Positions 3,711 to 62,004 of a stretch of 64,000 nt of DNA are shown here, in pieces. The translations under genes were made by a program, and so were the position numbers. How positions within the stretch are numbered: position 1 is the first letter of the stretch; each line of letters opens with the position of its first letter. Under the pieces are notes generated by a model. It did not search any database and was not told where the DNA came from. It saw only the letters and a list, made by a program, of their open reading frames with translations. Source of the stretch: a candidate division WWE3 bacterium RIFOXYC1_FULL_40_10 (GTDB taxonomy: Bacteria > Patescibacteriota > WWE3 > UBA101185 > UBA10185); assembly GCA_001773215.1 (NCBI GenBank), contig MEWB01000001.1, positions 151,108-215,107 of the forward strand, read 5' to 3'.

Positions 3711-5555
3711 ATGCCACAAAATCCTGCTCCAGAAGCTCAAGGACAAGAAAAGTTACCTGAAGACTTAAAGGAAGTTTTAGGTGAGGGTGCTGCTGTACAT
3801 GACGAAGCAACTTCTATGATTCATGCAAACATGGGGGGGGCTATAAAAATGGCAGAGACAACTCTTGGAGAAGATGCAAAACCAGAGTTGGAAGCCATGA
3901 AGGAGCTAGCAGACAGAGCATCCGAAGCAAGAAGTGCATTTGAAACGAGAGCAGAAAGATTAAGCTCGCCTTATGTTGTATCCCCAGAACTACAAAAAAC
4001 ATTAAGAATAGCTACCGTTTTGAAAAAACCATTACTACTTGAGGGTGAACCTGGTACTGGAAAGACATCTTTAGCTTACGCATTAGCAGGAGAGGAAGAC
4101 CTTCCTTTAATACATTGTCGAGGTAAGAGTACATTAACTGCTCAATCTGTAATGTACGAAATAGATTATGTTGCCAGATTGAATGATGCGACCCTCACTC
4201 AAGCTATTCCAGAAAATATGCGAGCAGAAGCGGGAAAATGGGAAAGTTATTTGAAAGCAGGAAATGACCCCAACAGCACCGAATTTCAGGGATTTATGCG
4301 TGGTCTCGATAATGCTGCAAGACTCCTAAATTTAGGCAGGGTGTCGGATGTACGCAACTACATTAGTTACGGCGAGCTTGGCGAAGCAATAATTAGAGGT
4401 TCAAGAGGTGAAAAAGTAATTTTGCTTTTTGATGAGGTTGATAAAGCTAAAAGAGAGTTTCCTAACGATTTGCTTGATGAGTTGGAACACATGACTATGC
4501 GTATTCGGGAGACAGGGGAGGAAGTTAGTTCGCCCAGGGAAAACATTGTTGTTGTAATAACCTCTAACCATGAAAGAGATTTGCCAGAGCCATTTTTAAG
4601 AAGATGTGTCTACAGCTATTTGGAATTTCCAAAACCAGACCAACTAACGGAAATAGTCAAAGCTCATATACCAGATGTGGAAGAAAAGCTTTTACGAAGT
4701 GCTGTTACAAGATTTTATGAAATAAGGGAAACGCAAGGCTTGCAAAAACCTCCTTCCACTTCAGAAATGTTGGATTGGGTAAAAGTATTGATGGAATTTG
4801 GTATTGAAGAAGTTGGTGGTGCAACGCCACTTCCAGAAGCAGTATTAAAAATAAAAGAAGACATGGACTTAGTTAGAAAACGGGAAAAAGAAACACGAAC
4901 AGGTGTATACGAAGCTGATGATTATGATGAGTTTTCAGTTTTAGAGGCGTACGAAATGGAAACGGCAGCGATTGAAGCCTTACGAGGAAGCAGGGTAGTT
5001 AACTTCAAGGGTGAGGAATACTACAGAGACAGACCTTCCTCGGAACTACTGATGGCACTTGCTAACGGGGGAGTAGCATTTAAGTATTCTGAAAGAGATA
5101 GAGAACCTTTTGAGATACTTGTGGATGGCGTGAAAATGGTTGCTCCTATGACTTTTGTATTCCCTCATAGACTTAGTGCTGAAGAACTTGCTTTATCTAC
5201 AGACGAAATACTTCAGAGGCAACAGGATAAACCAGAAGGTGAAAGAATGGGTAGAAGGCAGATAATCCAGGAAAAAAAGGCTAGCAGACTCCTAGCAGCT
5301 TTGGAAGAAGGCAAATTAGTTGCAGGAGAGTTTGTAGTAACCGAGCAGCCAGTTGCATTTACGGGTGTCGAAACATCTAATCAGTACTTTGTTAAAGGTA
5401 AAGATGCTTCTGGTAGAACTATATTTAGAACATCGGATGGCAAGTATATTTATGAAAAATCTACTAGTGAGGTGTCCAGCGAACCATCTGACGAAGATTT
5501 ATTAGGTTCAGCAACACTCAAGAAGCTTTCCTTTGACGATGAAGACGAAAAGTGA
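3711..5555 (+). CDS. MoxR/CoxD-like AAA+ ATPase
   Basis: Walker A LLLEGEPGTGKTSLAYALA, Walker B VILLFDEVDKA, sensor region ITSNH. Immediately followed by a VWA protein, which is the canonical MoxR-VWA pairing. Confidence 0.7.
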   Translation: MPQNPAPEAQGQEKLPEDLKEVLGEGAAVHDEATSMIHANMGGAIKMAETTLGEDAKPELEAMKELADRASEARSAFETRAERLSSPYVVSPELQKTLRIATVLKKPLLLEGEPGTGKTSLAYALAGEEDLPLIHCRGKSTLTAQSVMYEIDYVARLNDATLTQAIPENMRAEAGKWESYLKAGNDPNSTEFQGFMRGLDNAARLLNLGRVSDVRNYISYGELGEAIIRGSRGEKVILLFDEVDKAKREFPNDLLDELEHMTMRIRETGEEVSSPRENIVVVITSNHERDLPEPFLRRCVYSYLEFPKPDQLTEIVKAHIPDVEEKLLRSAVTRFYEIRETQGLQKPPSTSEMLDWVKVLMEFGIEEVGGATPLPEAVLKIKEDMDLVRKREKETRTGVYEADDYDEFSVLEAYEMETAAIEALRGSRVVNFKGEEYYRDRPSSELLMALANGGVAFKYSERDREPFEILVDGVKMVAPMTFVFPHRLSAEELALSTDEILQRQQDKPEGERMGRRQIIQEKKASRLLAALEEGKLVAGEFVVTEQPVAFTGVETSNQYFVKGKDASGRTIFRTSDGKYIYEKSTSEVSSEPSDEDLLGSATLKKLSFDDEDEK

Positions 5556-5576
5556 AAAGTTTCCTAAGGGCTTCAA

Positions 5577-7382
5577 ATGAGTGAAAAATTTACACCAGAA
5601 CCAGAAGTTCCTCAAGAAGAACCCTTAGCAAGCAAGGGTAAACCTGAAGTTTCAGTAAAGCTACCAGAATCCCCAGACATTAAAATCGATATTGAAAAAA
5701 AAGAAATAATAATCCTTTCCGAAGGTACTGAAACTGGTGAAAAAAGGCATCCTTTTCAAGAGTTTATGTATCACCTAAGGGGTGAAGGTATAAGAGTTTC
5801 CACAGGAGAGTGGCTAGACCTACAAACGCTGCTTGCGGCTGGAGAAGTACAGAGTTTGGACGAGCTTTATGTAGTAGCAAGAGCAGTTTTAGTTAAGGAT
5901 GCAGTTAATTATCCAAAATATGATGTAGCTTTTGGAAAACTTTTTTATGGTATAGAACCTCCAAGCGAGGAGGAAGAAGAAAATGAGGATAGCTATGATG
6001 AGCAAAATGATTACGATGACCCGCAAGACGGTACTGAATCTGAGGATGCTTTAAGGGAAAAGGCAGAGGTTGAAGAAAAAGAGAAAAAGGAAAAATCTGA
6101 ACCAAGCGAACCTGAAACAGACAAAGAAGCGGAGGAGGATGATGCTGAGGATAAGGAAGCAGAAAAGAAGGAGAAGAAAAAAGAGGAAGAAAAAAAGAAA
6201 CCAATACAAAAAGAAAAAGAGGATATTGATGAAGTCGAGGAAGCGACTTCTAAAACGACAGAAGATAAGCATGGTGGCGATGAGGCGACTAAGGATATTG
6301 AAGATTCACCTAACCCTGCTGATGAGGGCAAGAACAAGGAAAACAAAGGTGCTGAAAAAGGCGAGGATGGTTCGGAAGGTAAAGGCGAAGGTGAGGGTGG
6401 TGAAAAGAAGACGAAGAAAGGTACTGTTGGCGAAGGGGGTAAAAATAAAAGTGGTATGGGGAAAGAAGGTGAGGGCGAAGAAGAGGAGGAAACAGACGAA
6501 GCTGATGAAACAGATGAAAAAAAAGAAAGCAAAAAAGGAACTGGTAAATCTGGAGGAGGCGGGGGTAAACACAAAAAGAAATCAAAGGAAAGTGTTATGC
6601 GTGCTAGCGGTAAAGGAGGTTACGCATCTGCGAGAGAACGAGTTCAACAGAGGGAATACGAGGAGCTTAGAGATGATAGGACTCTTGGCTATGAGCAGTT
6701 CGGTAGAGCTTTATCTAAATTACGCACAATTGTACAGGAAACTACTTCTGCCAAAACTAGGACATTAGATGCCAGAGCTACAGTAAGAGCTATTGCCGAG
6801 CATGCAGGGACTCCAGAGCTGCTGTGGAAGGAAGAAGTGGAGGAGAAGCCTAGTGTAGTGCTTTTATTTGATGTTGGTGGGAGCACAGACGAATACAGAC
6901 CCATTCTTGAAAAACTATTTTCAGCAGCAAAAGACCATTTAGAAGGTTTAGAGGTCTATTATTTCCACAATGCTATCTATGGTGAGGTATGGCCGCAGAA
7001 AGATGGCAATTGGGGTAAGCACTTTGTGCCAGTATCCGATATTTTGAAAAAAGATTCTTCCACAAAGTTTATTATTATTGGCGATGCTTGGATGGCTGAC
7101 AGCGATGCAATGAATGGTGGTCTTCACGACTCTTATTTGGACTTAGACCCAGATGCAAAAAAGACTGAGCCTTGTTATAGGTGGACAGGACTCGAAAACT
7201 TTCAAGCAATAACCGAAGCTTTTCCAGCAACTGTGTGGGTAAATCCTATTTTAGAAAAACACCGAGACGATGCAGACGATTCTGGAACAATAGCGGATGT
7301 AGAAAGAGTTATTACTATGTATGACCTGAGTTTAAGAGGTATAGAAGCGGCAGTTAAGAAACTTATGGAAGAGGAACAGTAG
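5577..7382 (+). CDS. VWA-domain (CoxE-like) protein with about 230-aa E/K/D/G-rich low-complexity linker
   Basis: C-terminal LLFDVGGSTDEY...FIIIGDAWMADSD resembles a VWA/MIDAS-like fold partner of MoxR ATPases. Central region 5930-6600 is poly-acidic/basic (EEEEENED..., KKEKKKEEEKKK). Confidence 0.55.
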   Translation: MSEKFTPEPEVPQEEPLASKGKPEVSVKLPESPDIKIDIEKKEIIILSEGTETGEKRHPFQEFMYHLRGEGIRVSTGEWLDLQTLLAAGEVQSLDELYVVARAVLVKDAVNYPKYDVAFGKLFYGIEPPSEEEEENEDSYDEQNDYDDPQDGTESEDALREKAEVEEKEKKEKSEPSEPETDKEAEEDDAEDKEAEKKEKKKEEEKKKPIQKEKEDIDEVEEATSKTTEDKHGGDEATKDIEDSPNPADEGKNKENKGAEKGEDGSEGKGEGEGGEKKTKKGTVGEGGKNKSGMGKEGEGEEEEETDEADETDEKKESKKGTGKSGGGGGKHKKKSKESVMRASGKGGYASARERVQQREYEELRDDRTLGYEQFGRALSKLRTIVQETTSAKTRTLDARATVRAIAEHAGTPELLWKEEVEEKPSVVLLFDVGGSTDEYRPILEKLFSAAKDHLEGLEVYYFHNAIYGEVWPQKDGNWGKHFVPVSDILKKDSSTKFIIIGDAWMADSDAMNGGLHDSYLDLDPDAKKTEPCYRWTGLENFQAITEAFPATVWVNPILEKHRDDADDSGTIADVERVITMYDLSLRGIEAAVKKLMEEEQ

Positions 7383-7455
7383 AAACCCAAGTTTGTCGTT
7401 ATAACCACTATAAGATATAATACCCCTTACAAAACTGCATTTCCTATCAAAAATC

Positions 7456-7869
7456 ATGGAGGAAAGAATGGAAGACACAATTGGTGTTTTATGCCCATTC
7501 ACAGGCAAGGGAAACCTTCCTGTGCCGACTAGCCCTGTGTGGGCGGGCAGCGTGCCAGGTGAGAACATCTGGTACTTTAGTCATGACGAAGTGGAATCGG
7601 ATGGTCTGGCTGATGCTGTTGGACACCTCATGGGTGAAGAGACGGATATTCGCAAGACTATGCGTTGCATTGAAGCCCTTCAAAATAGTGGCAACTTGCA
7701 ACGAGTTGGAGAGTGGTGGTTTTTGCGTTTGCCGCAGCTTCCACGCCTTGAACTTCCAAGCGTTGCCGATATTGTGCTTGCTGTAGCTGACGGTACAGAC
7801 ATTGTGAGTGAAACACGCTCCAAGTTTGAAACCTACGCTCAGCAGCTCCAAACGGCATTGACGCAATAA
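7456..7869 (+). CDS. Hypothetical protein encoded in locally GC-rich (about 50%) segment
   Basis: 137-aa ORF. Surrounding 7.45-7.9 kb has visibly higher GC than flanks and open frames on both strands. Coding status uncertain. Confidence 0.3.
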   Translation: MEERMEDTIGVLCPFTGKGNLPVPTSPVWAGSVPGENIWYFSHDEVESDGLADAVGHLMGEETDIRKTMRCIEALQNSGNLQRVGEWWFLRLPQLPRLELPSVADIVLAVADGTDIVSETRSKFETYAQQLQTALTQ

Positions 7870-7982
7870 GGACTAAATCCAAAGGCCAAGAACACATCCA
7901 GTCCGCTTGAAGAAGAGCCTGTTAAGGGTAAAAAAACCTTTCGCAGGCTCTTTCTGTTTTATGTAGGTGTTAAAATATATGT

Positions 7983-8465
7983 ATGCGAAGGCTTACTGAA
8001 AAGCAACAAAAATTTATTGAAAAGTTAAATGCTGGTATTACACCTGTAGTTGCCGCCGAAGACTTGTACCGTTGTAAAAATCGTAATGTAGCCAGAGTCA
8101 TAGCGTCAAAAAATGTTAATCATCCTGTTATCTTTGAAAAAGTACGAGATGCTTTAGATTATCCTGGTTCAAAAGCTAGGGTAGAGCATATTGTAAAGGT
8201 AATTGAAGATGGTTTAACTGCTAACAAGACCATCATTACGAGGGTAGGGGACTTAGTGGAAGTACCAGACCACAAAACACGCTTGTATGCAGCACAGCTA
8301 GCTTTAAGAGTTCGTGGCGAACTTAAAGATATTATTGTTGATAACACATCTCATGATATTCATGTAAGTTTTAAGCTAATAAAAGCCAGAAGTCCTGAGG
8401 AAGTAGCCAGAGCAATGGGTAATACGAATACCAGGGCAGCAATACTGGAAGGTGAAACTAGTTAA
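7983..8465 (+). CDS. Putative phage terminase small subunit-like / HTH DNA-binding protein
   Basis: N-terminus LTEKQQKFIEKLNAGITPVVAAEDLY...ARVIASKNVNHPVI parallels the TerS N-terminal pattern (LSPKQE(R/K)F..EY...NATQAA..AGYS...). Weak, by eye. Confidence 0.3.
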   Translation: MRRLTEKQQKFIEKLNAGITPVVAAEDLYRCKNRNVARVIASKNVNHPVIFEKVRDALDYPGSKARVEHIVKVIEDGLTANKTIITRVGDLVEVPDHKTRLYAAQLALRVRGELKDIIVDNTSHDIHVSFKLIKARSPEEVARAMGNTNTRAAILEGETS

Positions 8466-8784
8466 TAAACGGTTAATGCTTACTTCCAGGACATCCCTTA
8501 AAAGGGTTACCTTGCCTGTGTGTTTTATTTTTCTTTCCCAGAACCATGTCGTTATTCGATGCTTATACGACATCTTTGTATTGAGGCAAATGCTGTAATA
8601 TCAAGCAAAAACAGTTGTACTCATGCGTCTTCTGTGTAACACACCTCTGATTTAATCTCATAGTGTGTGTTTTTGCTTTACGCTTTTGGGCTTGAGGGGT
8701 GTCACGCCGCCGCCGAGCGTTGATGAGCGTATGAGAAGAAAAAATCCGAAACCATAGGTATAATGTCTTCACATAAACATAAAT

Positions 8785-9429
8785 ATGAGTATAAACACAG
8801 ATAAATATAAAATAGTACCGCATGCAGCAGTCTTACTGGTGCAAAAAATACTGGAGAAGACAGAACCTCTTGCTGATACCAATGTGATATATCTTGAGCA
8901 TGTTTCCAGACAGCAGCAGAATACCTCTAAAACCTTTGTTTACGACAGTAGAAGCACAATAGAGTACTTGTACGGTGTTGGCATACTCCATGAGATTCGC
9001 CGAATAAAAAATGATGGTAGAACAGTAGAAGATTGGAAATACAAAGTCCATTTTTATAGAAGTAAGGCAATCGATTTTCTTCAAAATCTACCACTAGACG
9101 AAAACATTTACGAAATAACCTACGATGACCACATGCGTGAGATAAAAATAAACGGGAAACTTTTGACCAAGACATACTTTGGCAGCGATACGGATATGCT
9201 GTTTGAGCATGTTTACACTCATCCTGGCATACTATTGGGAAAAACTAGTATAGAGGTGGCAATCGACCAGAAGATGCGTACTTTAGCTGCAATTGTAAAA
9301 GACTTAAAATTTGTGGGTGTTTATAGAGAAGTATTTTTCCCTGTGGTTACTAAAACCCAGATTAAGTTCGTCAATCCTATTACCAGGCGTTATGCCTTAG
9401 AGAACCATCTTCCATCATTACCCTTATAA
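8785..9429 (+). CDS. Hypothetical protein (element-borne)
   Basis: 214-aa ORF with no recognised motif. Lies within the putative integrative element. Confidence 0.35.
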   Translation: MSINTDKYKIVPHAAVLLVQKILEKTEPLADTNVIYLEHVSRQQQNTSKTFVYDSRSTIEYLYGVGILHEIRRIKNDGRTVEDWKYKVHFYRSKAIDFLQNLPLDENIYEITYDDHMREIKINGKLLTKTYFGSDTDMLFEHVYTHPGILLGKTSIEVAIDQKMRTLAAIVKDLKFVGVYREVFFPVVTKTQIKFVNPITRRYALENHLPSLPL

Positions 9430-9503
9430 ATCAGTTTATGTGGTTTTATGCGAGTTTGTGCGTATTGGCTCACTAACCCCTTTCTATATGTGATTCTGGT
9501 TAC

Positions 9504-9749
9504 ATGGATAAGGCAGAATCAACATTATATAAGACTTCGACATTACCCCTAGCGGTATGCCTGTCCTTAATTTATCCCTTGAAATCAATTGAAAAAGGTA
9601 GCGACAGAAATCTGGTTTTTGTATTTGAAGAAACCAAGGACTTGCTTGATTCCATTGAACTTTATTGGAACAAACAGCTCCAAGTTGAACCGCAGTCATT
9701 TTTCTCCAGAATGCGGGAACTGAAAGCGAGGCTTTATGAACAGGTGTAA
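9504..9749 (+). CDS. Hypothetical small protein
   Basis: 81-aa ORF upstream of primase. Confidence 0.2.
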   Translation: MDKAESTLYKTSTLPLAVCLSLIYPLKSIEKGSDRNLVFVFEETKDLLDSIELYWNKQLQVEPQSFFSRMRELKARLYEQV

Positions 9750-9877
9750 AGTTCCGCAGGTTTCATATAAGGCGGTGGCACTTGCTCGTATTGAGGAAAA
9801 ACTGGACAAAGTTTATCAAATTATTTTCCAGCAAATGGAAAGCATGGGAATGACCCAGGAAGGCAATAAGAATAAAA

Positions 9878-12070
9878 ATGAATCAGGTGGAAACAATAAC
9901 AATTAAAGAATATCTTGATACGAAAGGCATACCATACAAAGAAAAGGGTAAAGAGCTTATAACAGCATGTGTTTTCAATAGCTGCGACAGCGACAGTCAT
10001 GCAGGTGAGGAACACTTATATTTTGATGCAGACACTTCTCAATATAAATGTTTCAAATGCGGTGAGACTGGAAATATCTTCACGCTTTGTGAGTTTTTAG
10101 GCGATGACAAGAAAACAGTAATTAAACAAAGTACTTCTGTGGGAACGGCAAGAGGCGTCAAAATTACTCTTGAGCAAATAGAAAGCTATCATAAAGCCCT
10201 ACCAGACCGCATAAAAAAATATCTTGAGGAAAAGAGAGGTATATCCACAGACTGGCAAAATACTTTTATGCTAGGGTGGGGTTCTTTTTATGGGAAAAAC
10301 TGGATAGTTATACCTTACAAGGATGCAGTAGGTAACTTTTCCTACCTAAAGCTTAGACGAGACCCTGAAACTGGTGAGGGCGAAAAGTATATGCGATTCC
10401 CAAGCGGGGCTGAATCAGCCATATACGGCATCGAAGTGTTGAGGGAAGAACAAGACTTACTTCTGATAACGGAGGGGGAGTTTGACGCTATGGTTGCAAC
10501 CATAAACGGAATCTCTGCAATATCTTTTTCTACAGGTGCGGGTAGTTACAAAAATGAAATCCGAAAACATGCGGAGCAGCTAAAGAAAATCAAGAAAATT
10601 TATGTGTGTCTGGATGCCGATATTGCGGGTATCGCCGCATCTACTGAAGTTATGAAGGAGCTTTTAGCGTTTGCACCTGATGCGGAACTTTACAGAGTAG
10701 ATTTATCGGAAAAGGTTAGGGGTGTTGGTAAAGATATTACGGATTATTTTGCTAGCTGCGGAGGTACTCCTGATGAACTTATTTATAAACTGGCAACTCG
10801 TTTTACGAAAGAAGATGTTGGGAAGGTAAACAGAATAATAACTGTACCCAAACCACAAAAAGATGTGTCGATAGAAGGTTGGAGAAATATAATTATTTCA
10901 ACTTTCCCCACCTTGCTTTTTCCTGCGGAGCTGTCTTTGTCTGTTTTAGGGCAGCTACTTATAAACGATATTAGTAATCCTTTCGGTTTGGTTTTGGTAG
11001 GTATGCCTTCTTCTGGAAAAACCATTACTCTCAACTTCTTTTCTGATGTTGACGAGCTTGTGTTTTGCTCGGACAAGTTTAGTGCAGCAGCTTTTGTTTC
11101 CAACGCTTCAAATGTTAAGGCAGAAAAGTTAGCCGAAATAGACCTTTTGCCAAAAATTCGCTACAAACTTTTTGAAGTGCGGGACTTAGCGACTCTATTT
11201 AGTAAGCGTGACGACGACTTGAATGAAGCTCTCGGTTTACTTACAAGAGTATTTGACGGTGAAGGCATTTTTACAGATTCAGGCACTCACGGACACAGGG
11301 GTTACAAAGGTGAATATCTGTTTATGTTCTTAGGTGCAACAACGCCAGTTTCACCAAGAGTATGGAAAATGATGGGCAATTTGGGTAGCCGTCTTTTCTT
11401 TTACAACATTGATAGTCCCGCAAAGACGGAATCAGAACTCATGGAGCAGATTACAACAAGCTCTTATAAGCAGAAAGAGAAGAAATGTCGTGAGGTAACA
11501 AAAGATTTTGTTTATAGTTTATGGAACGAGCATCCGAAAGGCATTACTTGGAAAAAAGAATCCGACTCGCCAAGAGCAAAAAGCCTGGTAGCAAAATCCG
11601 CCATATTTTTGGCAAGACTTAGGGGCGTGATAAACATTTGGAAGGACAGAAACGAATATTGGAGTTCGGACGAATATAACTTCACCATGCCTGTGGTTGA
11701 GCAACCAGACCGCTTAAATCAACTTTTTTACAATCTTTCAAGAGGGCATGCTGTTATTTGTGGACGAGATTACATTGATGACACCGATTTGAAGTTTGTA
11801 ATTGAGTTGGCAATACAAAGTTCTGAATATGTAAGGTCTTCAATCATGCGTGGACTTCTGAAGAATGGAGGTAGTCTCAAAACCAGCCAGGTTGAAAAGT
11901 TATTAAATTGCTCAAAGCCTACAGCATTAAAAGAAATGGAGGTGTTAAAAATACTAGGCTTATGTGACTACCGTGAAGAACTAACACTAGGATACCCTGG
12001 CAATAGTGAGAAACTTCTTGTGCTAAAAGAAGACTTTATGTGGTTACTAGAGGAACTAAAAAGAGAATAA
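9878..12070 (+). CDS. DNA primase (zf-CHC2 + TOPRIM) fused to C-terminal P-loop NTPase domain; mobile-element replication initiator
   Basis: N-terminal zinc finger CVFNSCDSDSHAGEEHLYF...YKCFKCGETGN. TOPRIM LLLITEGEFDAMVA ... CLDADIAGIAAS. Downstream Walker A GMPSSGKT. Architecture matches P4-alpha/SaPI Pri-Rep-type proteins. Confidence 0.7.
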   Translation: MNQVETITIKEYLDTKGIPYKEKGKELITACVFNSCDSDSHAGEEHLYFDADTSQYKCFKCGETGNIFTLCEFLGDDKKTVIKQSTSVGTARGVKITLEQIESYHKALPDRIKKYLEEKRGISTDWQNTFMLGWGSFYGKNWIVIPYKDAVGNFSYLKLRRDPETGEGEKYMRFPSGAESAIYGIEVLREEQDLLLITEGEFDAMVATINGISAISFSTGAGSYKNEIRKHAEQLKKIKKIYVCLDADIAGIAASTEVMKELLAFAPDAELYRVDLSEKVRGVGKDITDYFASCGGTPDELIYKLATRFTKEDVGKVNRIITVPKPQKDVSIEGWRNIIISTFPTLLFPAELSLSVLGQLLINDISNPFGLVLVGMPSSGKTITLNFFSDVDELVFCSDKFSAAAFVSNASNVKAEKLAEIDLLPKIRYKLFEVRDLATLFSKRDDDLNEALGLLTRVFDGEGIFTDSGTHGHRGYKGEYLFMFLGATTPVSPRVWKMMGNLGSRLFFYNIDSPAKTESELMEQITTSSYKQKEKKCREVTKDFVYSLWNEHPKGITWKKESDSPRAKSLVAKSAIFLARLRGVINIWKDRNEYWSSDEYNFTMPVVEQPDRLNQLFYNLSRGHAVICGRDYIDDTDLKFVIELAIQSSEYVRSSIMRGLLKNGGSLKTSQVEKLLNCSKPTALKEMEVLKILGLCDYREELTLGYPGNSEKLLVLKEDFMWLLEELKRE

Positions 12071-12154
12071 TTAAGTTATAATTACACATAGTGTCATGTA
12101 TCCTTTATCGATAAAGATAATCTGACGCTGTATCTGCCCAGAAAGAAGTATTTT

Positions 12155-13750
12155 ATGAGATTAGCTTTTTATGGCAGAGTAAGCACTCAAAGACAGGAAA
12201 AAGAAGAAACGATAGAAAACCAACTTTTGGTAGTTAAAGAAAAATTTGAGAAGGAAGGTCATGTATTTGTTAAGGATTATATCGATGAAAATTGGTCGGG
12301 GATGGTTTTGGAGAGACCTGATTTAGACCAATTAAGGCTTGATGCTGCTTCTGACTTATGGGAGGGCATTGCAATGTACGATACCGATAGATTAAGCCGC
12401 AAGTATATGCACCTGTGTATCCTACAGGAAGAGTTTGAGAAGGCAGGGAAGCAGCTATTGTTTGTTACGATTAAGACACCCGAAAATGATGAAGACCGTC
12501 TGATGTTTGGAATAAAAGGCTTGTTTAGTGAATATGAACGCTACAAAATTTCTGAAAGATTTAGATTAGGGAAGTTACGAAAGGCTCGTTCAGGGCAATT
12601 GATAATTTCACATGCACCTTTTGGGTATCGCCTCTTTAAAAAAACCGACAAAGAACATACTAGGATTGAAATAGAGCCTTACGAAGCAGAAGTAATAAAA
12701 ATGATTTTTACATGGCTTGGCGAAGAGGGTTGTAGCATCAGAGAAGTTATAAGAAGGCTTACAGATAAAGGTATACAGCCAAGAAAGAGCATGCGTAAAG
12801 TTTGGGCAACTTCCACAATAAATAACTTTATACACAACGAAACATATATGGGGACGGCATATTTTGGAAAATCTAAAGCTATAGAACCTAAAAACCCATT
12901 AAAGATTGAAAAGTATAAGCGGATAAAGAAGACTAGCCGTGTTCTTAGACCTAAAGAGGATTGGATACTAATAAAAGTTCCAACTATAATTACAGAAGAG
13001 CTATACAACAAAGTAAGAGCTAGGATGGAAGTTAACTCAAAATTTGCACCTAAGAATAAAAAACATGAGTACCTGTTAACTAGCTTGGTTGCATGTCCAT
13101 GTGGCTACAACAGAGTGGGGGAGCAAGGAAGGTATTACAGATGCAGCCAGCGTATTTATACATTTCCAGTAAAACAGTCCTGTACAGAAGGTGGTGTTGA
13201 TTCCAGCATGCTAGATTCTATGGTATGGCAGGAAATTTCTCAGCTCTTGTTGCAAAAAGACCTGATACTCGACTATTACAATAGGTGGACTGACTCGTTA
13301 AATGCTAAACACAATACTTATGAATCTCAAGTTAAGCCCTTAGAAAGAGGCTTAGACAGCTTAGAACGAGAATCTGCAAGGTATGTGAAAGCATTTGGTG
13401 CTGGATTGCTCGACTTTCAACAGTTTCAGGAGCTAAAAGTAGAGTTGGACAATAAAAGGTTATTGTTACAGGCTCAAATAAGTGTTAAAAAGTCTAGTGC
13501 AGACGAAGCGAAACGGACTCACTTAACAGAGGGAATGGTTGACACTTATTGCCAATTTGCATCAGCAGCGTTAAACGGTTTGTCATTTCAACAGAAACAA
13601 GAGATACTTAGAACGGTGGTTGAGAAGGTTACAGCCACACAAAAGGAAGCAATTATTTATGGTTACATACCCGTTAAAAAACTTAATACAAAGGAGGATA
13701 TCCTAAATGTCGAGCAGCGTCCTATCCATAGGAATCATTGGATTGCCTAA
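12155..13750 (+). CDS. Large serine recombinase (serine integrase)
   Basis: Catalytic N-terminus MRLAFYGRVSTQRQ (Y-x-R-V-S-T-x-x-Q). Recombinase domain, Cys-rich zinc ribbon CPCGYNRVGEQGRYYRCSQR and coiled-coil C-terminus. 531 aa. Confidence 0.8.
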   Translation: MRLAFYGRVSTQRQEKEETIENQLLVVKEKFEKEGHVFVKDYIDENWSGMVLERPDLDQLRLDAASDLWEGIAMYDTDRLSRKYMHLCILQEEFEKAGKQLLFVTIKTPENDEDRLMFGIKGLFSEYERYKISERFRLGKLRKARSGQLIISHAPFGYRLFKKTDKEHTRIEIEPYEAEVIKMIFTWLGEEGCSIREVIRRLTDKGIQPRKSMRKVWATSTINNFIHNETYMGTAYFGKSKAIEPKNPLKIEKYKRIKKTSRVLRPKEDWILIKVPTIITEELYNKVRARMEVNSKFAPKNKKHEYLLTSLVACPCGYNRVGEQGRYYRCSQRIYTFPVKQSCTEGGVDSSMLDSMVWQEISQLLLQKDLILDYYNRWTDSLNAKHNTYESQVKPLERGLDSLERESARYVKAFGAGLLDFQQFQELKVELDNKRLLLQAQISVKKSSADEAKRTHLTEGMVDTYCQFASAALNGLSFQQKQEILRTVVEKVTATQKEAIIYGYIPVKKLNTKEDILNVEQRPIHRNHWIA

Positions 13751-35387: not shown

Positions 35388-37907
35388 ATGAATACACAAT
35401 ACTTAGTAATATTAGGCACAGTAGCAGTCATTTTAATCTTCATAATTATTAAGAAGCTAAGATCTGTTGATAAAACCGATTTCGGAAAGGTTGAGATGGG
35501 TGACTTTGAGGTATTGGAAATACAGCTGAGTAGGGATACGGAAGAGAAAGGTGAGGCACAGGCCCCGGCACTGCTTGTGGAAAATATGTTTTCAGCACTA
35601 CACGGACTATTAAGATCGGATCCCACAGTGCAGGAACACTTTTCGTTTGAGATTGCGGCCTCAGGAGATACAGGTGTTAGGTTTTACGTTGCTGTGCCCA
35701 GAAATATCATGAAATTTGTCGAGAGTCAGATATATGCACAGTTACCTGATTCTCGTATCGAAGTTGTCACTGACTATACCAAGGAGCTGTTACCTACCAA
35801 AGAAAATTATCAAACTTCCCTTTTAAAACTGGGAAAGCCATCTTTTTTCCCCATAAGAAGCTTCAGAGAATTCGAGGTTGATCCCTTGGCTTCACTAATT
35901 GCTTCTATTTCTTCTCTAAGTGTAGATGAAAAGGTTTGGATACAGGTTGTGGTAAGGCCTTTGGCAGATGTATGGCAAAAAGAAGGCATGACATATGTTA
36001 ATACTATCCGAGAAGGAAGAGTTTACGGATCTAACCCCTCACCCGTTGGAACAGCAGTTGGGGCTCTAAAAAAAGAGTTTGGAGCAATTTTAATAGGTGC
36101 GTTGATAGGTTTGATCTCACCTCCAAAATCGGAATTTGAATCCGGTAAGGGAGCGCCCAAACCCGTTTTGCCTCCTCGGCTTTCAGCTTCTCAGGAACTT
36201 GATTTAAGGGCAATCGAGAATAAATTGTCTCGAATGGGCTTTTACGTCTCAGTTAGAGTCCTGGCTTCTTGCGGAAGTAATGAAAAGGTGGACAGCCGGT
36301 TAAGGGCCGTTCTAGCGTCACTAAACCAGTTTAGTATAGCCAATTTAAATGGGTTTGTTGCAGAAATAGACAAAGATCACGCGCAATCCTTTAGGGACTA
36401 TACAAATAGGGTGATATCTTATCCCGAAAGCTTCATCTTAAGCACAGAGGAATTAGCCTCGGTTTATCATTATCCCTCCGGAAGTTTTGAAGCGCCGAAC
36501 ATTTCATGGGTATACTCCAAAAGTTCGGAGCCGCCAAGCAATCTTCCTACTGAAGACTGTGTATACATAGGAGAAACTATGTTTAGGAATAAAAAAGTCA
36601 AATTTGGCATTAAAAATGGGGATGACAGACTAAGACATATGTATCTAATAGGAAAGTCGGGTACTGGGAAGTCCACTCTTATATATACTATGGCTTGTCA
36701 GGATATCAAGAATGGCGCCGGGGTAGGTGTGCTCGATCCTCACGGTGAGACTATCGAAAGTATATTAGAGAGGATACCTGATAACAGAATTGATGATGTT
36801 GTTATAGTAGATCCTTCAGATTCTGAGCGGCCTGTTGGATTGAACCTGCTTGAAATGGAGGATCCAAGTCAGAAGAATCTTATGGCTTCGGGTTTGGTGG
36901 CCGCAATTAAACAACACTTTGAATATTCCTGGGGTCCCCGTTTGGAATACCTGCTAAACTATGCCATATTGACACTGTTAGACGTGCCGGGAACTTCGAT
37001 ACTAGGTATTACCAGACTATTAGAAGATCAAAATTACCAAAGATATATACTTCATCAGGTTAAAGATCCTGTGGTAGTGAGGTTTTGGGAAAAGGAGTAC
37101 AAAGAGATAAAGGGAAATCAAAAATTTGCTACCGAAGCTATAGCACCAATACAAAACAAGGTGAATAGATTTCTTGCTTCCAGTACCATTAGGGACATTC
37201 TCGGCCAGAAGAATTCTACAATTAACATTTGGGATATAATGAATTCGGGAAAAATTTTGTTAATTAACCTTTCAAAGGGGAAAATTGGCTCAGATAATGC
37301 AAATTTGCTGGGAGCTCTATTGGTTTCAAGAATCCAATTTTATGCCCTCCAACGCGCCAGGATACCTTACGAAAAAAGAACACCCTTCTATTTATATGTT
37401 GATGAATTCCAGAACTTTGCATCAGGTAGTTTTGGTGAGATCCTTTCGGAGTCGAGGAAATACAAATTAGGTTTATACCTTACCCATCAGTACACCGAGC
37501 AGCTACCTGAAGAATTGTTGCATGCTGTATATGGCAATGTAGGTACTTTACTTGCATTTTCGCTTGGTGCGCCAGATGCCAAAGCTCTAGAGCATGAGTT
37601 TGCGCCTTACTTTACTCAAGAGGACATTCTATCCTTAGAAAGATTCCAAGTTTATATTAAGTTAATGATTGATGGTATGACATCACACCCGTTTTCGGGT
37701 AGGATTCTAATTCCATGGTCGGATGAGTTACTAGGTACTATGATTCCAAAAACTCCCAATAGGGAACGTGTATTAGAGTTGAGCCGCCAAAAGTATGGAT
37801 CGGATAGAGCCACTGTGGAGGCCAAAATTGGCAAGTGGGTCGAAACACCATTCGATAAAGGTATGGCAATCGCCCAGGAGAAAAGGACTCCTGATATGGT
37901 AAAATAA
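35388..37907 (+). CDS. Membrane-anchored VirB4/HerA/FtsK-superfamily P-loop ATPase (DUF87/AAA_10-like)
   Basis: N-terminal TM. Walker A YLIGKSGTGKSTLIY about residue 420. Walker B LYVDEFQNF. Downstream SESRKYKLGLYLTHQ arginine-finger/sensor block characteristic of HerA/VirB4/TraD clade. 839 aa with Walker A mid-protein as in VirB4. Confidence 0.55.
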   Translation: MNTQYLVILGTVAVILIFIIIKKLRSVDKTDFGKVEMGDFEVLEIQLSRDTEEKGEAQAPALLVENMFSALHGLLRSDPTVQEHFSFEIAASGDTGVRFYVAVPRNIMKFVESQIYAQLPDSRIEVVTDYTKELLPTKENYQTSLLKLGKPSFFPIRSFREFEVDPLASLIASISSLSVDEKVWIQVVVRPLADVWQKEGMTYVNTIREGRVYGSNPSPVGTAVGALKKEFGAILIGALIGLISPPKSEFESGKGAPKPVLPPRLSASQELDLRAIENKLSRMGFYVSVRVLASCGSNEKVDSRLRAVLASLNQFSIANLNGFVAEIDKDHAQSFRDYTNRVISYPESFILSTEELASVYHYPSGSFEAPNISWVYSKSSEPPSNLPTEDCVYIGETMFRNKKVKFGIKNGDDRLRHMYLIGKSGTGKSTLIYTMACQDIKNGAGVGVLDPHGETIESILERIPDNRIDDVVIVDPSDSERPVGLNLLEMEDPSQKNLMASGLVAAIKQHFEYSWGPRLEYLLNYAILTLLDVPGTSILGITRLLEDQNYQRYILHQVKDPVVVRFWEKEYKEIKGNQKFATEAIAPIQNKVNRFLASSTIRDILGQKNSTINIWDIMNSGKILLINLSKGKIGSDNANLLGALLVSRIQFYALQRARIPYEKRTPFYLYVDEFQNFASGSFGEILSESRKYKLGLYLTHQYTEQLPEELLHAVYGNVGTLLAFSLGAPDAKALEHEFAPYFTQEDILSLERFQVYIKLMIDGMTSHPFSGRILIPWSDELLGTMIPKTPNRERVLELSRQKYGSDRATVEAKIGKWVETPFDKGMAIAQEKRTPDMVK

Positions 37908-37912
37908 CTTTT

Positions 37913-38602
37913 ATGCAAGATAACGAACCACAAGAACTAAAAAGTTTCGAGAGAGTAAGACAGATACTTTGGGATCTTCAAAAAGATATCACCAAAGCAT
38001 TGGACGCAGTAAAGAGAATTGAGGAGGAAGAGAAAAGAAAGTACTATCAAACCATACCCGGAGTGGAAGGGGAGTTTGACGGAGAGTTTCTTGTGGACTC
38101 TTCCGGAAAAAAGCATGACGTTCCAAATAATTATTCAGCCAAATCTAGATTAGTGCATGGCGATCAGCTAAAAAGAATTGAGGACAATGAAGGTGTGGTA
38201 TATAAGCAAATTCATAAGGTAGACAGAGATAAAATAAAGGGAGTTTTGAACAAGAAAGAAGGTCAGTGGTATGTTTTAACTGACAAAGGAACGTTTAAGA
38301 TTTCCGACACTGCTGCTGAGTTCAATCACGCCGAAGTAAATGATGAGGCTGTGGCAATTATTCCAAGAGATAATCATAATGTCCCTTTTGCCGCCCTAGA
38401 TAGAGTTTTTAAGCCGGCAGGATCTCCCGCCACAGCTCCTATAAAGATCGAAAAGGTTGAGGTAAAGCTTTCCAAGCCAAAAAGTGAAAAAAAGCCTGAG
38501 CCCAAGAAAGCTGCTGCACCAGCGCCAAAGCCCGCAGAAAAAAGACCAATAAACAAAGAATTCGTTGCCGATATTTCGTTGGCTGATGATGATCTAAGGT
38601 AA
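37913..38602 (+). CDS. Hypothetical protein with K/A/P-rich C-terminal tail
   Basis: 229-aa ORF 6 nt downstream of ATPase gene. C-terminus KPKSEKKPEPKKAAAPAPKPAEKRP. Confidence 0.3.
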   Translation: MQDNEPQELKSFERVRQILWDLQKDITKALDAVKRIEEEEKRKYYQTIPGVEGEFDGEFLVDSSGKKHDVPNNYSAKSRLVHGDQLKRIEDNEGVVYKQIHKVDRDKIKGVLNKKEGQWYVLTDKGTFKISDTAAEFNHAEVNDEAVAIIPRDNHNVPFAALDRVFKPAGSPATAPIKIEKVEVKLSKPKSEKKPEPKKAAAPAPKPAEKRPINKEFVADISLADDDLR

Positions 38603-40402: not shown

Positions 40403-41230
40403 ATGATCGAGAGTCTAAATAATATACTTAAACTAATGCTTAACACAGGTAAGAAGCTAAAGTTTGTGTTGCAATCCGCGCTTTTTTTTATTTTTCTAGT
40501 GTTGCTATCAACAAGAGTACTTCCTCTTAACTGGGTTCAAGCAGGAATATTATTCGTTGGAGTAATTGCTATTACGACCTTGGTATTACACTTTCCCAAT
40601 ATAAAAATTAAAACTCTTGCCCCTGCAACTATAATGCCGGTTACACTATTAGTTGCCTCCTTAGTGTTTTTCTCCCAGTACAGTGATTTGGGGCCTTTTT
40701 TTAAAATGTTTATCTGTGCGGGCTTTGGCTTTTTATATTATTTGATTTCACTTGTAGATAACGTAGTACTAGTGGTACACGAGAAAGAAGAGGCTATACC
40801 GTTGTATCGAGCTGCTTTGTCTTGGAGTCAGGTTGTACAGATGCTGGTTGCCATTCCATTGTTGGCAGGCATATATCAAGCAGACAACATAAAGGTGCCT
40901 TATACTATAGTCCTAATTCTTCTTACTACTATTTTTATCTGCTATCAATTTTGGGTTCTAAGTTTTGATACCGATTCGAAAAAACTTAGGGTAGGGGAGG
41001 CTGTATTTTTGAACCTGCTAATATGTTTTTTCGTTGTGGTTGCAAATTTTTGCGTGGTCTTTATACCCGGTGAGGAGTTTCTTAGAGCCTTAGTCATTTC
41101 TACAGTAATGTTGTTTGGGATAAATTATTTCACTGCGTATTTAAAAAATAGCATAACTAAAAGAGTACTCATTCAATATGCAATTATAATAGCCGTATTT
41201 TTCTCGATCCTATTAGTTTTTAATCCTTAA
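40403..41230 (+). CDS. Polytopic membrane protein, hypothetical
   Basis: 275 aa with about 7 hydrophobic segments. Starts at ruvC stop. Confidence 0.4.
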   Translation: MIESLNNILKLMLNTGKKLKFVLQSALFFIFLVLLSTRVLPLNWVQAGILFVGVIAITTLVLHFPNIKIKTLAPATIMPVTLLVASLVFFSQYSDLGPFFKMFICAGFGFLYYLISLVDNVVLVVHEKEEAIPLYRAALSWSQVVQMLVAIPLLAGIYQADNIKVPYTIVLILLTTIFICYQFWVLSFDTDSKKLRVGEAVFLNLLICFFVVVANFCVVFIPGEEFLRALVISTVMLFGINYFTAYLKNSITKRVLIQYAIIIAVFFSILLVFNP

Positions 41231-41310
41231 AAAAATTTAAGTGAACAAAGGTAGAGTAGTGGAGTGGGGTAGTTTTATTAGCACTATAGGGTCTGCCGTG
41301 ATAAACTATA

Positions 41311-41465
41311 GGGTACGTTTGTCATACAACCTAGGTACAAATGTCATACATATAGGCATTTACCTTGTAGTTAAAGCTTACTTTGCCTCTGCCGGTTCGG
41401 CCATAATGTCATACGTGCTTCTGTAAGGTTGTCATACTTCCTGGGGTAGGGTTGTCATACTTCTC
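41311..41465. repeat. Five direct repeats (iteron-like) with core TGTCATAC, phased 22-23 bp
   Basis: Core copies at 41320, 41342, 41407, 41430, 41453. Units: gggtacgttTGTCATACaacct / aggtacaaaTGTCATACatata / ...ataaTGTCATACgtgc / gtaaggtTGTCATACttcc / gtagggtTGTCATACttct. Confidence 0.6.
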
Positions 41466-41487
41466 GGAGATCCTGATTACCCCGCAT

Positions 41488-41496
41488 TGTGGATAA
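41488..41496. promoter_or_regulatory. Consensus DnaA box (TGTGGATAA = TTATCCACA reverse), followed by AT-rich tract 41540-41610
   Basis: Exact 9-mer match. A single occurrence is not statistically significant alone. Confidence 0.3.
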
Positions 41497-41688
41497 TTAG
41501 TCAGGTGATTGAAAGCACGGGTGTCCATGCCTCTCCGATCAAATAATTATTTACTTTAGAATTAATTAAATAAATAAGAACGTAAAAGGAAAATATCTAA
41601 TTAAGGAATATTTTCCGCTGTTTCCTCCCCCCTGTTATTTAAGTATCCTATTATTTGTATTTGGTGCGTGCTGTCGTTTTTCCCACCT

Positions 41689-41722
41689 ACCACGTCGTTA
41701 AACATACATTATACGACGTGGT
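41689..41722. repeat. Perfect 10-bp inverted repeat (ACCACGTCGT / ACGACGTGGT) with 14-nt loop
   Basis: Read directly: accacgtcgt-taaacatacattat-acgacgtggt. Confidence 0.6.
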
Positions 41723-42050
41723 CAATATCTTATATTTTCCCTACTCTCTTGTTTTTTGATTATTGTTTTGAATTACGAGCTAAGTTTTTTTATTGATGGT
41801 AGAAAGCGTAACTAATCGACTCCAAAAAATTTTAGGCTCCCCTATTATTTCTATTTCGCGTTCTTATGTGGTAATTCCCTCACCCTTTTTGTTAATTCGT
41901 TTTTATTTACCTTGGGCTGTGTTAGATATGTTGGTTTCTCTACTTTTATATTGCCACTGCAGTGTAAAGTGGCAGTTAGCCTCTAGAATCGATTTTAAGC
42001 ATGTTTTAGTATAAAGTTGTAGTTAGTATCATCTTTTAAACGAACTCGTC

Positions 42051-43085
42051 GTGGGATATACTTGTAACACATCTATGAGTAACATTTCTTTGTCATCCGA
42101 TCTAGAAAAAGTGTCAGTTGCGTATCTTGAATATTGTGAAATAGAAAAAAACTTATCTCAGAATACAATCAAGATGTATTATTTTTATTTGACCGATTTT
42201 TTAGATTGGTTAAAAACTTATACCTCGAACCAAACGCCGAAAATTTCGGATTTGAATGATACAAATGTCAAAAAATACCGTCTTGATCTAAATCGTAGGA
42301 TTAGTACCAAATCGAATCAGGAATTTAAGCGGTCTACCCAGAAAACCTTTTTAGTGGCTCTTAGGGCTTTTTTGAAGTATCTGATTGTCATCGAAAACCT
42401 GGAAATAATGTCTCCTGAACAGATAATATTGGGCAAAAGTGATGATCGTGTGCCAAAAGTTCTCAATGAGGAGCAAATGGGACGACTTTTTCAGGTTCAA
42501 GATTTGAGCAAAAGATCGGGTTTGCGCGACAGGTCAATATTGGAGACTTTATTTAGCACCGGTTTACGCGTCAGCGAACTTGTAGCTTTGGATAAAGATG
42601 ATGTAAATCTTATCACAGGTGAATTTACAGTAGTTGGCAAGGGCGGCAAGGCGCGCATCGTATACCTATCGCAGTCAGCAATAATGTGGTTAAAGCGTTA
42701 TTTGACAACAAGAAAAGATCCTTTTCTGCCGTTATTTATTAGATATTCGGGGGTACATATGGTTAAGGATGATTTTGAGGGACACTCTTTAAGGCTAACT
42801 TCCCGAAGTGTTGAGAGGCTTGTGAAAAAGTACACCAAACGTGCGGGAATAAGCATAGATGCAACCCCTCACACTCTTAGGCACACATTTGCAACCGGTT
42901 TACTGCGTGAAGGTGCCGATTTACGTAGTGTTCAGGAGTTGCTCGGCCACTCAAACGTTTCTACCACTCAAATATATACACACGTTACGAATACTCAGCT
43001 TAAAGAGGTTCATAAAAAATTCCATAAAGATGTTAACGAATCCGGCGAAATGGCTGAAGATGTGGTAGAATCGGTTATCAGTTAG
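42051..43085 (+). CDS. Tyrosine recombinase, XerC/XerD-like
   Basis: C-terminal catalytic box HTLRHTFATGLLREGADLRSVQELLGHSNVSTTQIYTHV (R..HxxR...Y). N-terminal SAM-like core-binding domain. Confidence 0.75.
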   Translation: MGYTCNTSMSNISLSSDLEKVSVAYLEYCEIEKNLSQNTIKMYYFYLTDFLDWLKTYTSNQTPKISDLNDTNVKKYRLDLNRRISTKSNQEFKRSTQKTFLVALRAFLKYLIVIENLEIMSPEQIILGKSDDRVPKVLNEEQMGRLFQVQDLSKRSGLRDRSILETLFSTGLRVSELVALDKDDVNLITGEFTVVGKGGKARIVYLSQSAIMWLKRYLTTRKDPFLPLFIRYSGVHMVKDDFEGHSLRLTSRSVERLVKKYTKRAGISIDATPHTLRHTFATGLLREGADLRSVQELLGHSNVSTTQIYTHVTNTQLKEVHKKFHKDVNESGEMAEDVVESVIS

Positions 43086-61376: not shown

Positions 61377-62004
61377 GAGCTGCTCCAACGCTAGAGCAGC
61401 TCCAAAGGCGGAGCTACTCCTGTAGGAATGGAAATTACTCTCTTCCCCTTTCCCTAAAATCTAGATATACAGGTATATATGCCTGCGATTAACTCCTTAA
61501 AAAAATACGTTCAAGGTGGAATTTATCATGTATACAACAGGGGAAATCGGAAAAGTGAAATTTTTTTAGCGGCTCAGGACTATGATATTTTCTGTTATTT
61601 ATTGGAAAGATATTTACTCCCATGTCCTGTTTCTATGAGATGCAAGAGCTACTCTAACCAGATTAAAGTACACGCTTTTTGTTTGATGCCCAATCACTTT
61701 CATCTACTGCTAGAGCAGATCCAAGAGAGGGCTATATCCAGCTTCATGCACGGTCTTTGTCTGAGTTATTCTATGATATTTAACAAACGGTATGAGAAGG
61801 TTGGCAGACTGTTTCAAGGAGTGTACAAAGCACGTCTTATCACAAGAGAATCCGAGATAAGCACCGTGGCATCTTACATACACATCAACCCTTCCGAAGT
61901 AGGAGCTACTCCGGAGGATTACCCCTATTCTAGTTATGGTTGTTATCTAGGGAAAGACACGTGTAGATTTCTAACGACGGAGCTGCTCCAACGCTAGAGC
62001 AGCT
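61377..62004 (+). mobile_element. IS200-like / REP-associated tyrosine transposase (RAYT) element bounded by identical 27-bp hairpin sequences
   Basis: GGAGCTGCTCCAACGCTAGAGCAGCTC present at 61377-61403 and 61978-62004 in the same orientation. Each forms a 9-bp stem (GAGCTGCTC/GAGCAGCTC) with 8-nt loop. Additional nested palindromes at both ends. Confidence 0.7.
61479..61997 (+). CDS. tnpA: HUH-family Y1 transposase (IS200 TnpA / RAYT)
   Basis: YHVYNRGNRKSEIF (N-terminal beta-strand block), HUH motif CLMPNHFHLLLE, C-terminal catalytic Tyr region GVYKARLI...YPYSSYGCY. 172 aa. Confidence 0.75.
   Translation: MPAINSLKKYVQGGIYHVYNRGNRKSEIFLAAQDYDIFCYLLERYLLPCPVSMRCKSYSNQIKVHAFCLMPNHFHLLLEQIQERAISSFMHGLCLSYSMIFNKRYEKVGRLFQGVYKARLITRESEISTVASYIHINPSEVGATPEDYPYSSYGCYLGKDTCRFLTTELLQR

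Follow-up and report, generated by a model that had tools for sequence, protein, structure and literature searches.

The noncoding spacer described here, 820 bp in length, lies in a 64-kb window (64,000 nucleotides of contig MEWB01000001.1) from the genome of the uncultured candidate division WWE3 bacterium RIFOXYC1_FULL_40_10, where it separates the gene for a 275-amino-acid membrane protein (40403-41230) from a tyrosine recombinase gene (42075-43085; hereafter xer), with yebC and ruvC upstream and rnhB and gyrA downstream. In WWE3 (Katanobacteria) the spacer forms a conserved chromosomal locus made up of two modules. One module is a 28-bp dif-like site together with xer; the other, which lies ~170-260 bp upstream of the 28-mer, consists of CTATAGG motifs, direct repeats, one DnaA box in register with these repeats, and an AT-rich tract. 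We favor the view that the locus combines a recombination module of the xer/dif type with an adjoining conserved control region, and put the probability of this at roughly 0.55. An initial reading of the letters alone (the sequence-only reading) had noted iterons, a DnaA box, an AT-rich segment and a hairpin in the spacer and proposed an iteron-type theta origin, with arm-type sites for the recombinase or a dif-proximal array as alternatives. All four elements are real and conserved, being shared by about 90 related WWE3 genomes and found in a diverged form in Levybacteria-like genomes. The last of the alternatives is the one that fits, as the "hairpin" proved to be a dif-like site of 11-6-11 layout tied to xer.

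Loci of relatives were retrieved through the recombinase protein alone, and 19 WWE3-like genomes include the DNA upstream. The elements recur in these 19 genomes in the order CTATAG motifs, TGTCATA[C/T] repeats, G-rich run, TGTGGATAA, AT-rich tract, ACGTCGTTAAACATACATTATACGACGT and xer. Scanning metagenome contigs with the inner 20 bases of the 28-mer returned 110 stretches, and the layout is identical in about 75 of the 80 that were listed. GCA_001773055.1 also contains this sequence, as do near-identical metagenome contigs that reach 673 and 897 kb. The 28-mer is nearly invariant among relatives even though the surrounding spacer can barely be aligned, and no DNA similarity of the spacer to plasmid or phage records was found.

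The core site, ACGTCGTTAAA-CATACA-TTATACGACGT, occupies positions 41692-41719 on the + strand and is a dyad with a left arm (41692-41702), a 6-bp centre (41703-41708) and a right arm (41709-41719). The arms differ from each other solely at inner positions 8-9, and the perfect 10-bp inverted repeat that had been read as a hairpin is indeed present, at 41689-41698 and 41713-41722. Allowing up to two mismatches, the 28-mer occurs in 17 of the 19 Xer-retrieved loci, identically in nine and on the + strand in every case. The site is single wherever it was counted, with one copy per stretch in the 80 listed metagenome loci (including contigs of 697 and 532 kb) and one in an 88-kb composite of the window genome; a second copy was not found in 571 kb of relatives, nor was the 28-mer found in viral contigs. 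All 59 loci that hold both the 28-mer and xer have them on the same strand, the site lying a median of 416 bp (range 170-3,000 bp) upstream of the gene. The outermost positions of the 28-mer vary without strict compensation. Invariance is as high in the loop and centre as in the stem, and this favors a protein-binding site over a hairpin structure alone. The site falls at 51.9% of CP006914.1 and at ~55.6% of an 897-kb contig, counted from wherever these records begin.

The two sides of the site behave differently among lineages. Unrelated cargo genes that differ by lineage, some of them on the opposite strand, are found between the site and xer, while the other side keeps its distance to the DnaA box. 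Variable cargo of this kind is expected beside a recombination site. Inserts between site and xer were seen in loci L006 (5532-5867), L008 (5632-5886), L016 (5651-5935), L090, L109 and L117; the insert in L117 is a family-1 glycosyl hydrolase and elsewhere small unknown open reading frames (ORFs) were found. Isolated copies of a half-site are located near inserts in L117 (at +329), L119, L153 and L006. A second dif-like copy flanking the cargo, as in IMEX-type integration, was sought and rejected, as only these isolated half-sites were found.

The sequence-only reading had suggested a comparison with the dif consensus, and with reference sequences taken from PMC3025954 the 28-mer has the layout of dif. 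It shares 17 of 28 positions with Bacillus subtilis dif and 15 of 28 with Escherichia coli dif, and the shared positions are mostly in the inner arms and the centre. No canonical dif was found elsewhere in the 64-kb window.

The enzyme encoded next to the site is a XerC/D-like tyrosine recombinase (42075-43085, + strand, with an alternative GTG start at 42051). It matches Pfam Phage_integrase at 4.6e-42 and carries an N-terminal SAM-like domain, and its nearest solved structures are XerD (1a0p) and a XerC-like protein (4a8e). NCBIfam scores are all below the equivalog cut-offs for XerD (254 against 330), XerC (249 against 335) and XerA (214 against 220), and the XerS score is 134 bits. The R, K, HxxR, H and Y catalytic motifs all align to XerD, so the active-site set is intact. 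The near-equal XerC, XerD and XerA scores, together with the full catalytic set, fit a single-recombinase system on near-symmetric arms, and the near symmetry of the arms itself suggests that one protein binds both.

A related arrangement is found outside WWE3. Thirteen loci of a Levybacteria-like sister group (L028 and L031-L042, some of them mislabelled 'Gammaproteobacteria') share the yebC-ruvC-membrane-gene synteny and have a related 28-bp site, ATGTCG[C/T]ACAA TAATAC TTTT[G/A]CGACAT, the arms of which covary (C..G or T..A). The Levybacteria-like dyad is located 670-3,700 bp upstream of xer and is preceded by repeats of its own (CTTTTCAC and TAGCCTCAAA) and by a conserved CGAAAAAAATACGAAA motif. 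The same DnaA box is present in nine of the 13 loci, 250-510 bp from the site, and all 13 have a GATATAG motif related to CTATAG. A DnaA box, a TATAG-type motif and an A/T-rich element are common to the WWE3 and Levybacteria-like loci. The Levybacteria-like repeats (CTTTTCAC) follow the DnaA box, whereas the WWE3 repeats precede it.

In the window genome, the upstream module opens with two ACTATAGGGT motifs (41283-41292 and 41305-41314, + strand), which have a palindromic CTATAG core and form the left edge of the conserved array; 80 copies in relatives give the consensus a.aCTATAGggT. Five iteron-like units on the + strand (41312-41461) have TGTCATAC cores at 41320, 41342, 41407, 41430 and 41453. 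These five copies, contained in 141 bp, are five of the six in the 64-kb window, where 1.46 would be expected and none of 100 shuffles reached six. The sequence-only reading had described five phased iterons on the same helix face. The five cores on one strand stand; the even spacing does not, because the steps of 22, 65, 23 and 23 bp amount to a 2+3 layout with a gap rather than an even array. The modal spacing of 23-25 bp in 60 relatives likewise undoes the claim of a shared helix face. From 156 copies the unit has the consensus GTAnGwTTGTCATA, is ~14-17 bp long and forms an imperfect 15-bp palindrome, which is typical of the site of a dimeric DNA-binding protein. In a non-redundant WWE3 set of 61 loci with sufficient upstream DNA, there are mostly two to four units in a single orientation, and the last unit usually begins 25-26 bp before the DnaA box.

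The DnaA box itself (TGTGGATAA, or TTATCCACA on the - strand) is located at 41488-41496 on the + strand, as originally noted, and is the sole perfect box in the 64-kb window; no other box with up to one mismatch was found in the spacer. Among the 61 loci the box is perfect in 51 and has one mismatch in nine, and it precedes the 28-mer by a median of 214 bp (interquartile range 199-227). On the 3' side of TGTGGATAA, 25-70 bp off at a variable distance, is the AT-rich tract (41540-41610, no strand assigned), which contains TTAATTAA-type words. At 85% AT it is, as first noted, strongly AT-rich, the most AT-rich 71 bp of the whole 64 kb (top 0.01% of its 71-bp windows). The DNA between box and site is 63-80% AT in all relatives, with the consensus blocks ttaatttAaT and tAatTaatta.

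Locus specificity was assessed by comparing this zone with 529 kb of the relatives' flanks. The repeat word TTGTCATA occurs in the relatives at 7.1 per kb in the zone and 0.013 per kb elsewhere (~550x), with 147 copies on the + strand of the zone and none on the - strand, and perfect DnaA boxes number 55 in the zone and three in the flanks. The density of repeats and boxes indicates that these elements are locus-specific and under selection, and disposes of the possibility that the unit is a dispersed REP-type repeat. Weaker DnaA boxes (relaxed consensus, up to one mismatch) are in excess only 1.5-fold in the relatives. The idea that the repeats are themselves weak DnaA boxes was rejected, since TGTCATAC fits TGTGNAWAA at 5 of 9 positions only; the Levybacteria-like CTTTTCAC(A/G) fits it at 7-8 of 9, but the excess of such boxes is only the 1.5-fold just given. 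The 61-amino-acid ORF that covers the repeats (41241..41426) had been judged noncoding and we agree; the spacer has no ORF of at least 100 amino acids. Its features give the upstream module the look of a group of binding sites for proteins, which are likely to include DnaA and a protein specific to each lineage.

Short G-rich words point toward the site from both sides. The word GGNAGGG occurs to the left of the site 22 times on the + strand and five times on the - strand, and to the right three and 14 times, respectively. This convergence holds in both gene-strand classes (Cochran-Mantel-Haenszel p = 1e-4), and in an unbiased polarity scan of 3,400 heptamers AGGGTAG ranked first. One such word, GGGGTAGGG, which matches GGGNAGGG, lies within the conserved array at 41443-41451 on the + strand and is aimed at the 28-bp site; relatives have a G-rich run before the DnaA box. 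Intergenic copies of GGGNAGGG in 65 WWE3 loci number 33 on the + strand and none on the - strand to the left of the site, and none and 12, respectively, to the right, and the polarity of the G-rich words has the same direction in both groups of relatives. The GGGNAGGG word is the E. coli KOPS consensus, and KOPS words orient the FtsK translocase. By analogy, the convergence appears to be the kind of polarity that FtsK-orienting sequences show around dif.

Base composition does not mark the site in the same way. The strand-specific component of the base skew was separated from the coding-strand component by comparing + and - genes, using 80-kb and 88.8-kb composites of the window genome and sliding 18-kb blocks. 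At third codon positions (GC3) this strand component is +0.07 to +0.11 in 18-kb blocks from 10 to 70 kb and is unchanged across the site at 41.7 kb, so that the skew minimum expected of an origin is not at this locus. In the 80-kb composite, third codon positions are G-rich on the + strand to either side of the site (+0.102 +/- 0.015 on the left and +0.065 +/- 0.017 on the right), and the pooled loci of relatives (65 WWE3 and 13 Levybacteria-like) show the same. Further to the right, +29 to +39 kb from the site (70.7-80.7 kb equivalent; L202 10882-20885), the strand component is +0.01 +/- 0.03, which may place a composition switch some 35-45 kb to the right of the site. Gene direction near the site is convergent in the pooled relatives (87% + on the left, 68% - on the right); in the 80-kb composite, 76% of the coding DNA on the left is on the + strand, toward the locus, and 59% on the right is also on the + strand. 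The raw skew in the window tracks gene direction. Another scaffold from the same population (L205, 23 kb) has a strand component of similar size (0.114 +/- 0.020), yet its G-rich strand holds only ~44% of the coding DNA; the coupling of skew to gene direction is therefore no more than loose in the source organism. An FG-GAP paralogue was likewise seen only on a different scaffold.

How might the two modules work? Judging from established Xer biochemistry, the XerC/D-like recombinase would bind both 11-bp arms, which are nearly symmetric. On a dimeric chromosome the two copies of the site would then be brought together and strands exchanged across the 6-bp centre, returning the dimer to monomers. 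The upstream module may serve as a protein-loading or control region for the neighboring site, its likely binders being DnaA and a repeat-binding protein, and its role could be the timing or the selectivity of recombination. If it does act in control, the locus would represent a new coupling of dimer resolution to the replication initiator.

Several observations weigh against an assignment to xer/dif. Identity to canonical dif is modest (13-17 of 28 positions), and some random 28-mers of the window score 18, so identity alone is not decisive. Bacterial dif normally lies within ~1-3% of the genome from the GC-skew shift point (PMC3025954); here a composition switch is absent from -50 to +39 kb of the site, which would therefore lie at least 4% of the genome from any such point, and the steady strand component does not support a terminus exactly at the site. 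Control words of equal composition are as polar as GGNAGGG in relatives, and the identity of the polar motif is accordingly not established. The order and distance of the parts of the upstream module differ between WWE3 and Levybacteria-like loci, which argues against a rigid architectural role. Finally, in position weight matrix (PWM) comparisons the repeat unit shows no half-site resemblance to the core site (P = 0.27 for WWE3 and 0.50 for Levybacteria-like loci). With no motif shared between the repeats and the 28-mer's arms, a mechanism of the TnpI/IRS type, in which accessory repeats would be occupied by the recombinase, is not supported. A likeness of the repeats to extra Xer half-sites, seen by eye, failed this PWM test, in which random 36-mers were the reference.

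One alternative is that the origin shares its location with the terminus. The upstream module would fire in one direction, the fork would circle ~0.9 Mb and end at the same locus, and the dimer-resolution site would sit there because replication ends there. We regard this as unlikely, though it is the main rival and the more novel one. The only perfect DnaA box, the most AT-rich tract and an iteron-like array occur together here, adjoin a dif-like site and show conservation across two candidate phyla. Left and right of the site, third codon positions are G-rich on one and the same strand, both in the window genome and in the pooled relatives, as a one-way replicon predicts, and replication genes (dnaB, ssb, dnaX-recR, rnhB, gyrA, gyrB and holB) are located within ~45 kb. 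In related Microgenomates, the cumulative GC skew of closed genomes is monotonic, for which an adjacent origin and terminus or unidirectional theta replication was proposed with the origin unlocated (PMC7143001); such genomes would need an origin-like and dif-like locus without a switch, as seen here. Against this, the monotonic skew was published for the order UBA1400 and not for WWE3 or Levybacteria, the tracking of gene direction by the raw skew implies a strand-wide bias far weaker than in the monotonic-skew genomes, and the strand component drops to near zero +29 to +39 kb from the site, a hint that the skew is not uniform and that an ordinary switch lies further to the right.

The fine structure of the upstream module likewise fits poorly with replication starting at this locus. 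There is one DnaA box, not a cluster as in oriC, and the weaker boxes show only the 1.5-fold excess given above. Relative to the box, the AT-rich tract is on the other side than in E. coli oriC, where the unwinding element is 5' of TGTGGATAA. In B. subtilis and Helicobacter pylori the order is a box read TTATCCACA, a GC-rich stretch, DnaA-trios and AT-rich DNA (PMC8235120). The box here faces away from the AT-rich tract when compared with either the E. coli R1 box and unwinding element or this box-GC-trio-AT order, and no trinucleotide-repeat (DnaA-trio) run was seen by eye. No initiator gene is adjacent, the neighbors being the membrane protein, RuvC, YebC and Xer. The RAAC2 genome paper has nothing on an origin. 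If origin and terminus were nevertheless co-located, this would be the first bacterial chromosome with origin, terminus and dif at one point, and the locus would be a candidate for the unlocated Microgenomates origin (PMC7143001), provided the same locus is present there; a one-way origin beside a terminus has been raised for the monotonic-skew genomes in that study and never tied to a sequence.

Less likely again is purely transcriptional control, in which the 28-bp dyad would be an operator, for a dimeric regulator or for Xer autoregulation, without recombination, and the repeats and DnaA box would regulate xer or a neighboring promoter. The repeat units, as imperfect 15-bp palindromes, are typical of sites for helix-turn-helix (HTH) regulators, and DnaA is a transcription factor in many bacteria. 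A further conserved, palindrome-like motif that was spotted by eye, CCTCTAGAATCGATTTTAAG, is located at 41980-41999 on the + strand, just upstream of xer and ~76 bp from its ATG. By eye, most relatives have a variant of it at the corresponding position (L015 has GCCCTAGAATCGATTTTAAGG and L020 has GGCTCTAGAATCGATTCTAAGC, for instance), and the motif may be a promoter or operator for xer. However, an invariant 6-bp centre together with invariant inner arms would be unusual for an operator spacer. The site also lies 170-3,000 bp from xer, with unrelated genes between, some of them on the opposite strand, and a promoter-like region is found close to xer itself. Nor would this reading account for polar words that converge over tens of kilobases.

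We consider it very improbable that the locus is an ordinary bidirectional oriC in which the 28-bp palindrome would serve as an operator or as an element of the origin. The DnaA box, AT-rich tract, direct repeats and nearby replication genes are what such a reading has in its favor. The left flank has a G-rich + strand (+0.10 +/- 0.015) and 76% of its coding DNA directed toward the locus, the opposite of what is expected left of an origin, and the polar G-rich words converge rather than diverge. [quoted passage not shown] The strand composition, the single box, the side on which the AT-rich tract lies and the lack of dnaA together contradict an ordinary bidirectional origin. The iteron-type theta origin of the sequence-only reading fails that reading's own test for refutation and lacks most features by which an origin is defined. 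The units of 14-17 bp with a modal spacing of 23-25 bp and one orientation do form an array of the iteron kind. The box is single, though, the AT-rich tract is on the wrong side, the locus has neither a Rep-like gene beside it nor a composition switch, and the inverted repeat bears no resemblance to the repeats, as an operator of inverted half-iterons would.

Weakest of all, and scarcely credible, is a gene for a structured noncoding RNA, or for an RNA that acts as a protein sponge through repeated motifs. Length, conservation and recurring short motifs of the spacer would suit such a gene, yet there was no Rfam match in the window or 11 relatives at gathering and permissive thresholds, fold energies of the spacer were no better than shuffles (z = -0.45 and -0.74), RNAalifold gave no consensus structure for 57 loci on either strand, and the number and spacing of the repeats vary.

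Several other genes near the locus were noted. An ATPase gene at 35388-37907 encodes a membrane-anchored P-loop protein of 839 amino acids in the HerA/FtsK/TrwB superfamily, with DUF8128 and DUF87 domains and weak CedD and VirD4-type matches. It is present in 30 of 70 WWE3 relatives, few of the loci extending that far, always on the + strand and ~5.6 kb upstream of the site. From its domains the protein is a possible DNA translocase; an FtsK gamma domain was not detected in it. The next gene (37913-38602) encodes a 229-amino-acid protein with a Lys/Pro/Ala-rich basic tail and a weak PadR-type match, which is found in 32 of 70 WWE3 relatives ~3.8 kb upstream of the site, and which we would suggest, speculatively, as a candidate DNA-binding protein. 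More broadly, a replication and repair cluster extends from -8 to +72 kb (L199, the window and L197) and includes dnaX-recR, ssb (15210), dnaB (29732), ruvC, xer, rnhB, gyrA, gyrB (58663) and holB (60683). This cluster resembles the origin-proximal set of Firmicutes, minus dnaA and dnaN.

Two further regions of the window were noted. The + strand genes at 3711-13750 encode an AAA_5 ATPase, a VWA protein, small unknown proteins, a 730-amino-acid Toprim protein and a large serine recombinase (Resolvase and Recombinase domains plus a zinc ribbon), and the region looks like an integrated mobile or defence island. A gene for an IS200/IS605-type Y1 transposase is present at 61479-61997 (L202 17689-18228) and proved to be single-copy. 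It is missing from that position in the 897-kb contig of the near-identical strain, which has a second copy of 47% identity ~16 kb further right.

The xer/dif-type arrangement favored here has several known counterparts. XerS/difSL and certain archaeal XerA systems are known modules in which a recombinase gene adjoins its site (PMC5357621), and in XerS/difSL of streptococci and lactococci, as in archaeal xerA/dif, one Xer gene likewise lies directly beside a dyad-symmetric target. Archaeal dif has the same 11-6-11 layout and need not lie opposite the origin. The difSL site differs in its 31-bp length, 11-bp centre and unrelated sequence, and the recombinase here is closer to XerC, XerD and XerA than to XerS. 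Canonical XerCD/dif of E. coli and B. subtilis shares with the WWE3 locus a 28-bp length, TTAT/ATAA-type inner arms, a TATACA-like centre and converging G-rich words that include GGGNAGGG; in contrast, the arms here are nearly symmetric and the site lies off any GC-skew shift within -50/+39 kb.

Conserved accessory DNA on one side only of a tyrosine-recombinase core site is also a feature of the plasmid sites cer/psi and of TnpI/IRS of Tn4430. Accessory regions of cer/psi are ~180 bp, and the accessory-type region here, ~200-400 bp, is of the same order. In TnpI/IRS, accessory direct repeats impose resolution selectivity (PMC2847244), and the DR1/DR2 repeats share a motif with the core arms, whereas the direct repeats here do not. 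The WWE3 element differs from both systems in that it is chromosomal, conserved across phyla and includes a DnaA box, and in that its distances vary from 170 to 510 bp between lineages. Iteron plasmid origins (pSC101, RK2, R6K and P1) likewise combine direct repeats at about two turns with a DnaA box next to them, an AT-rich tract and, before a downstream gene, an inverted repeat. The downstream gene here encodes a recombinase and not a Rep initiator, however, the inverted repeat is unrelated to the repeats, and the locus is chromosomal, in conserved housekeeping synteny and without DNA similarity to plasmids or phages.

In the literature searched, we found no description of a Xer/dif system for the CPR and no described counterpart of a dif-like site that has a conserved DnaA box, a lineage-specific array of repeats and AT-rich DNA ~200 bp away. 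The locus provides a concrete, testable site and enzyme for the WWE3 and Levybacteria-like lineages, and its core module is a new variant of the known single-recombinase Xer/dif modules.

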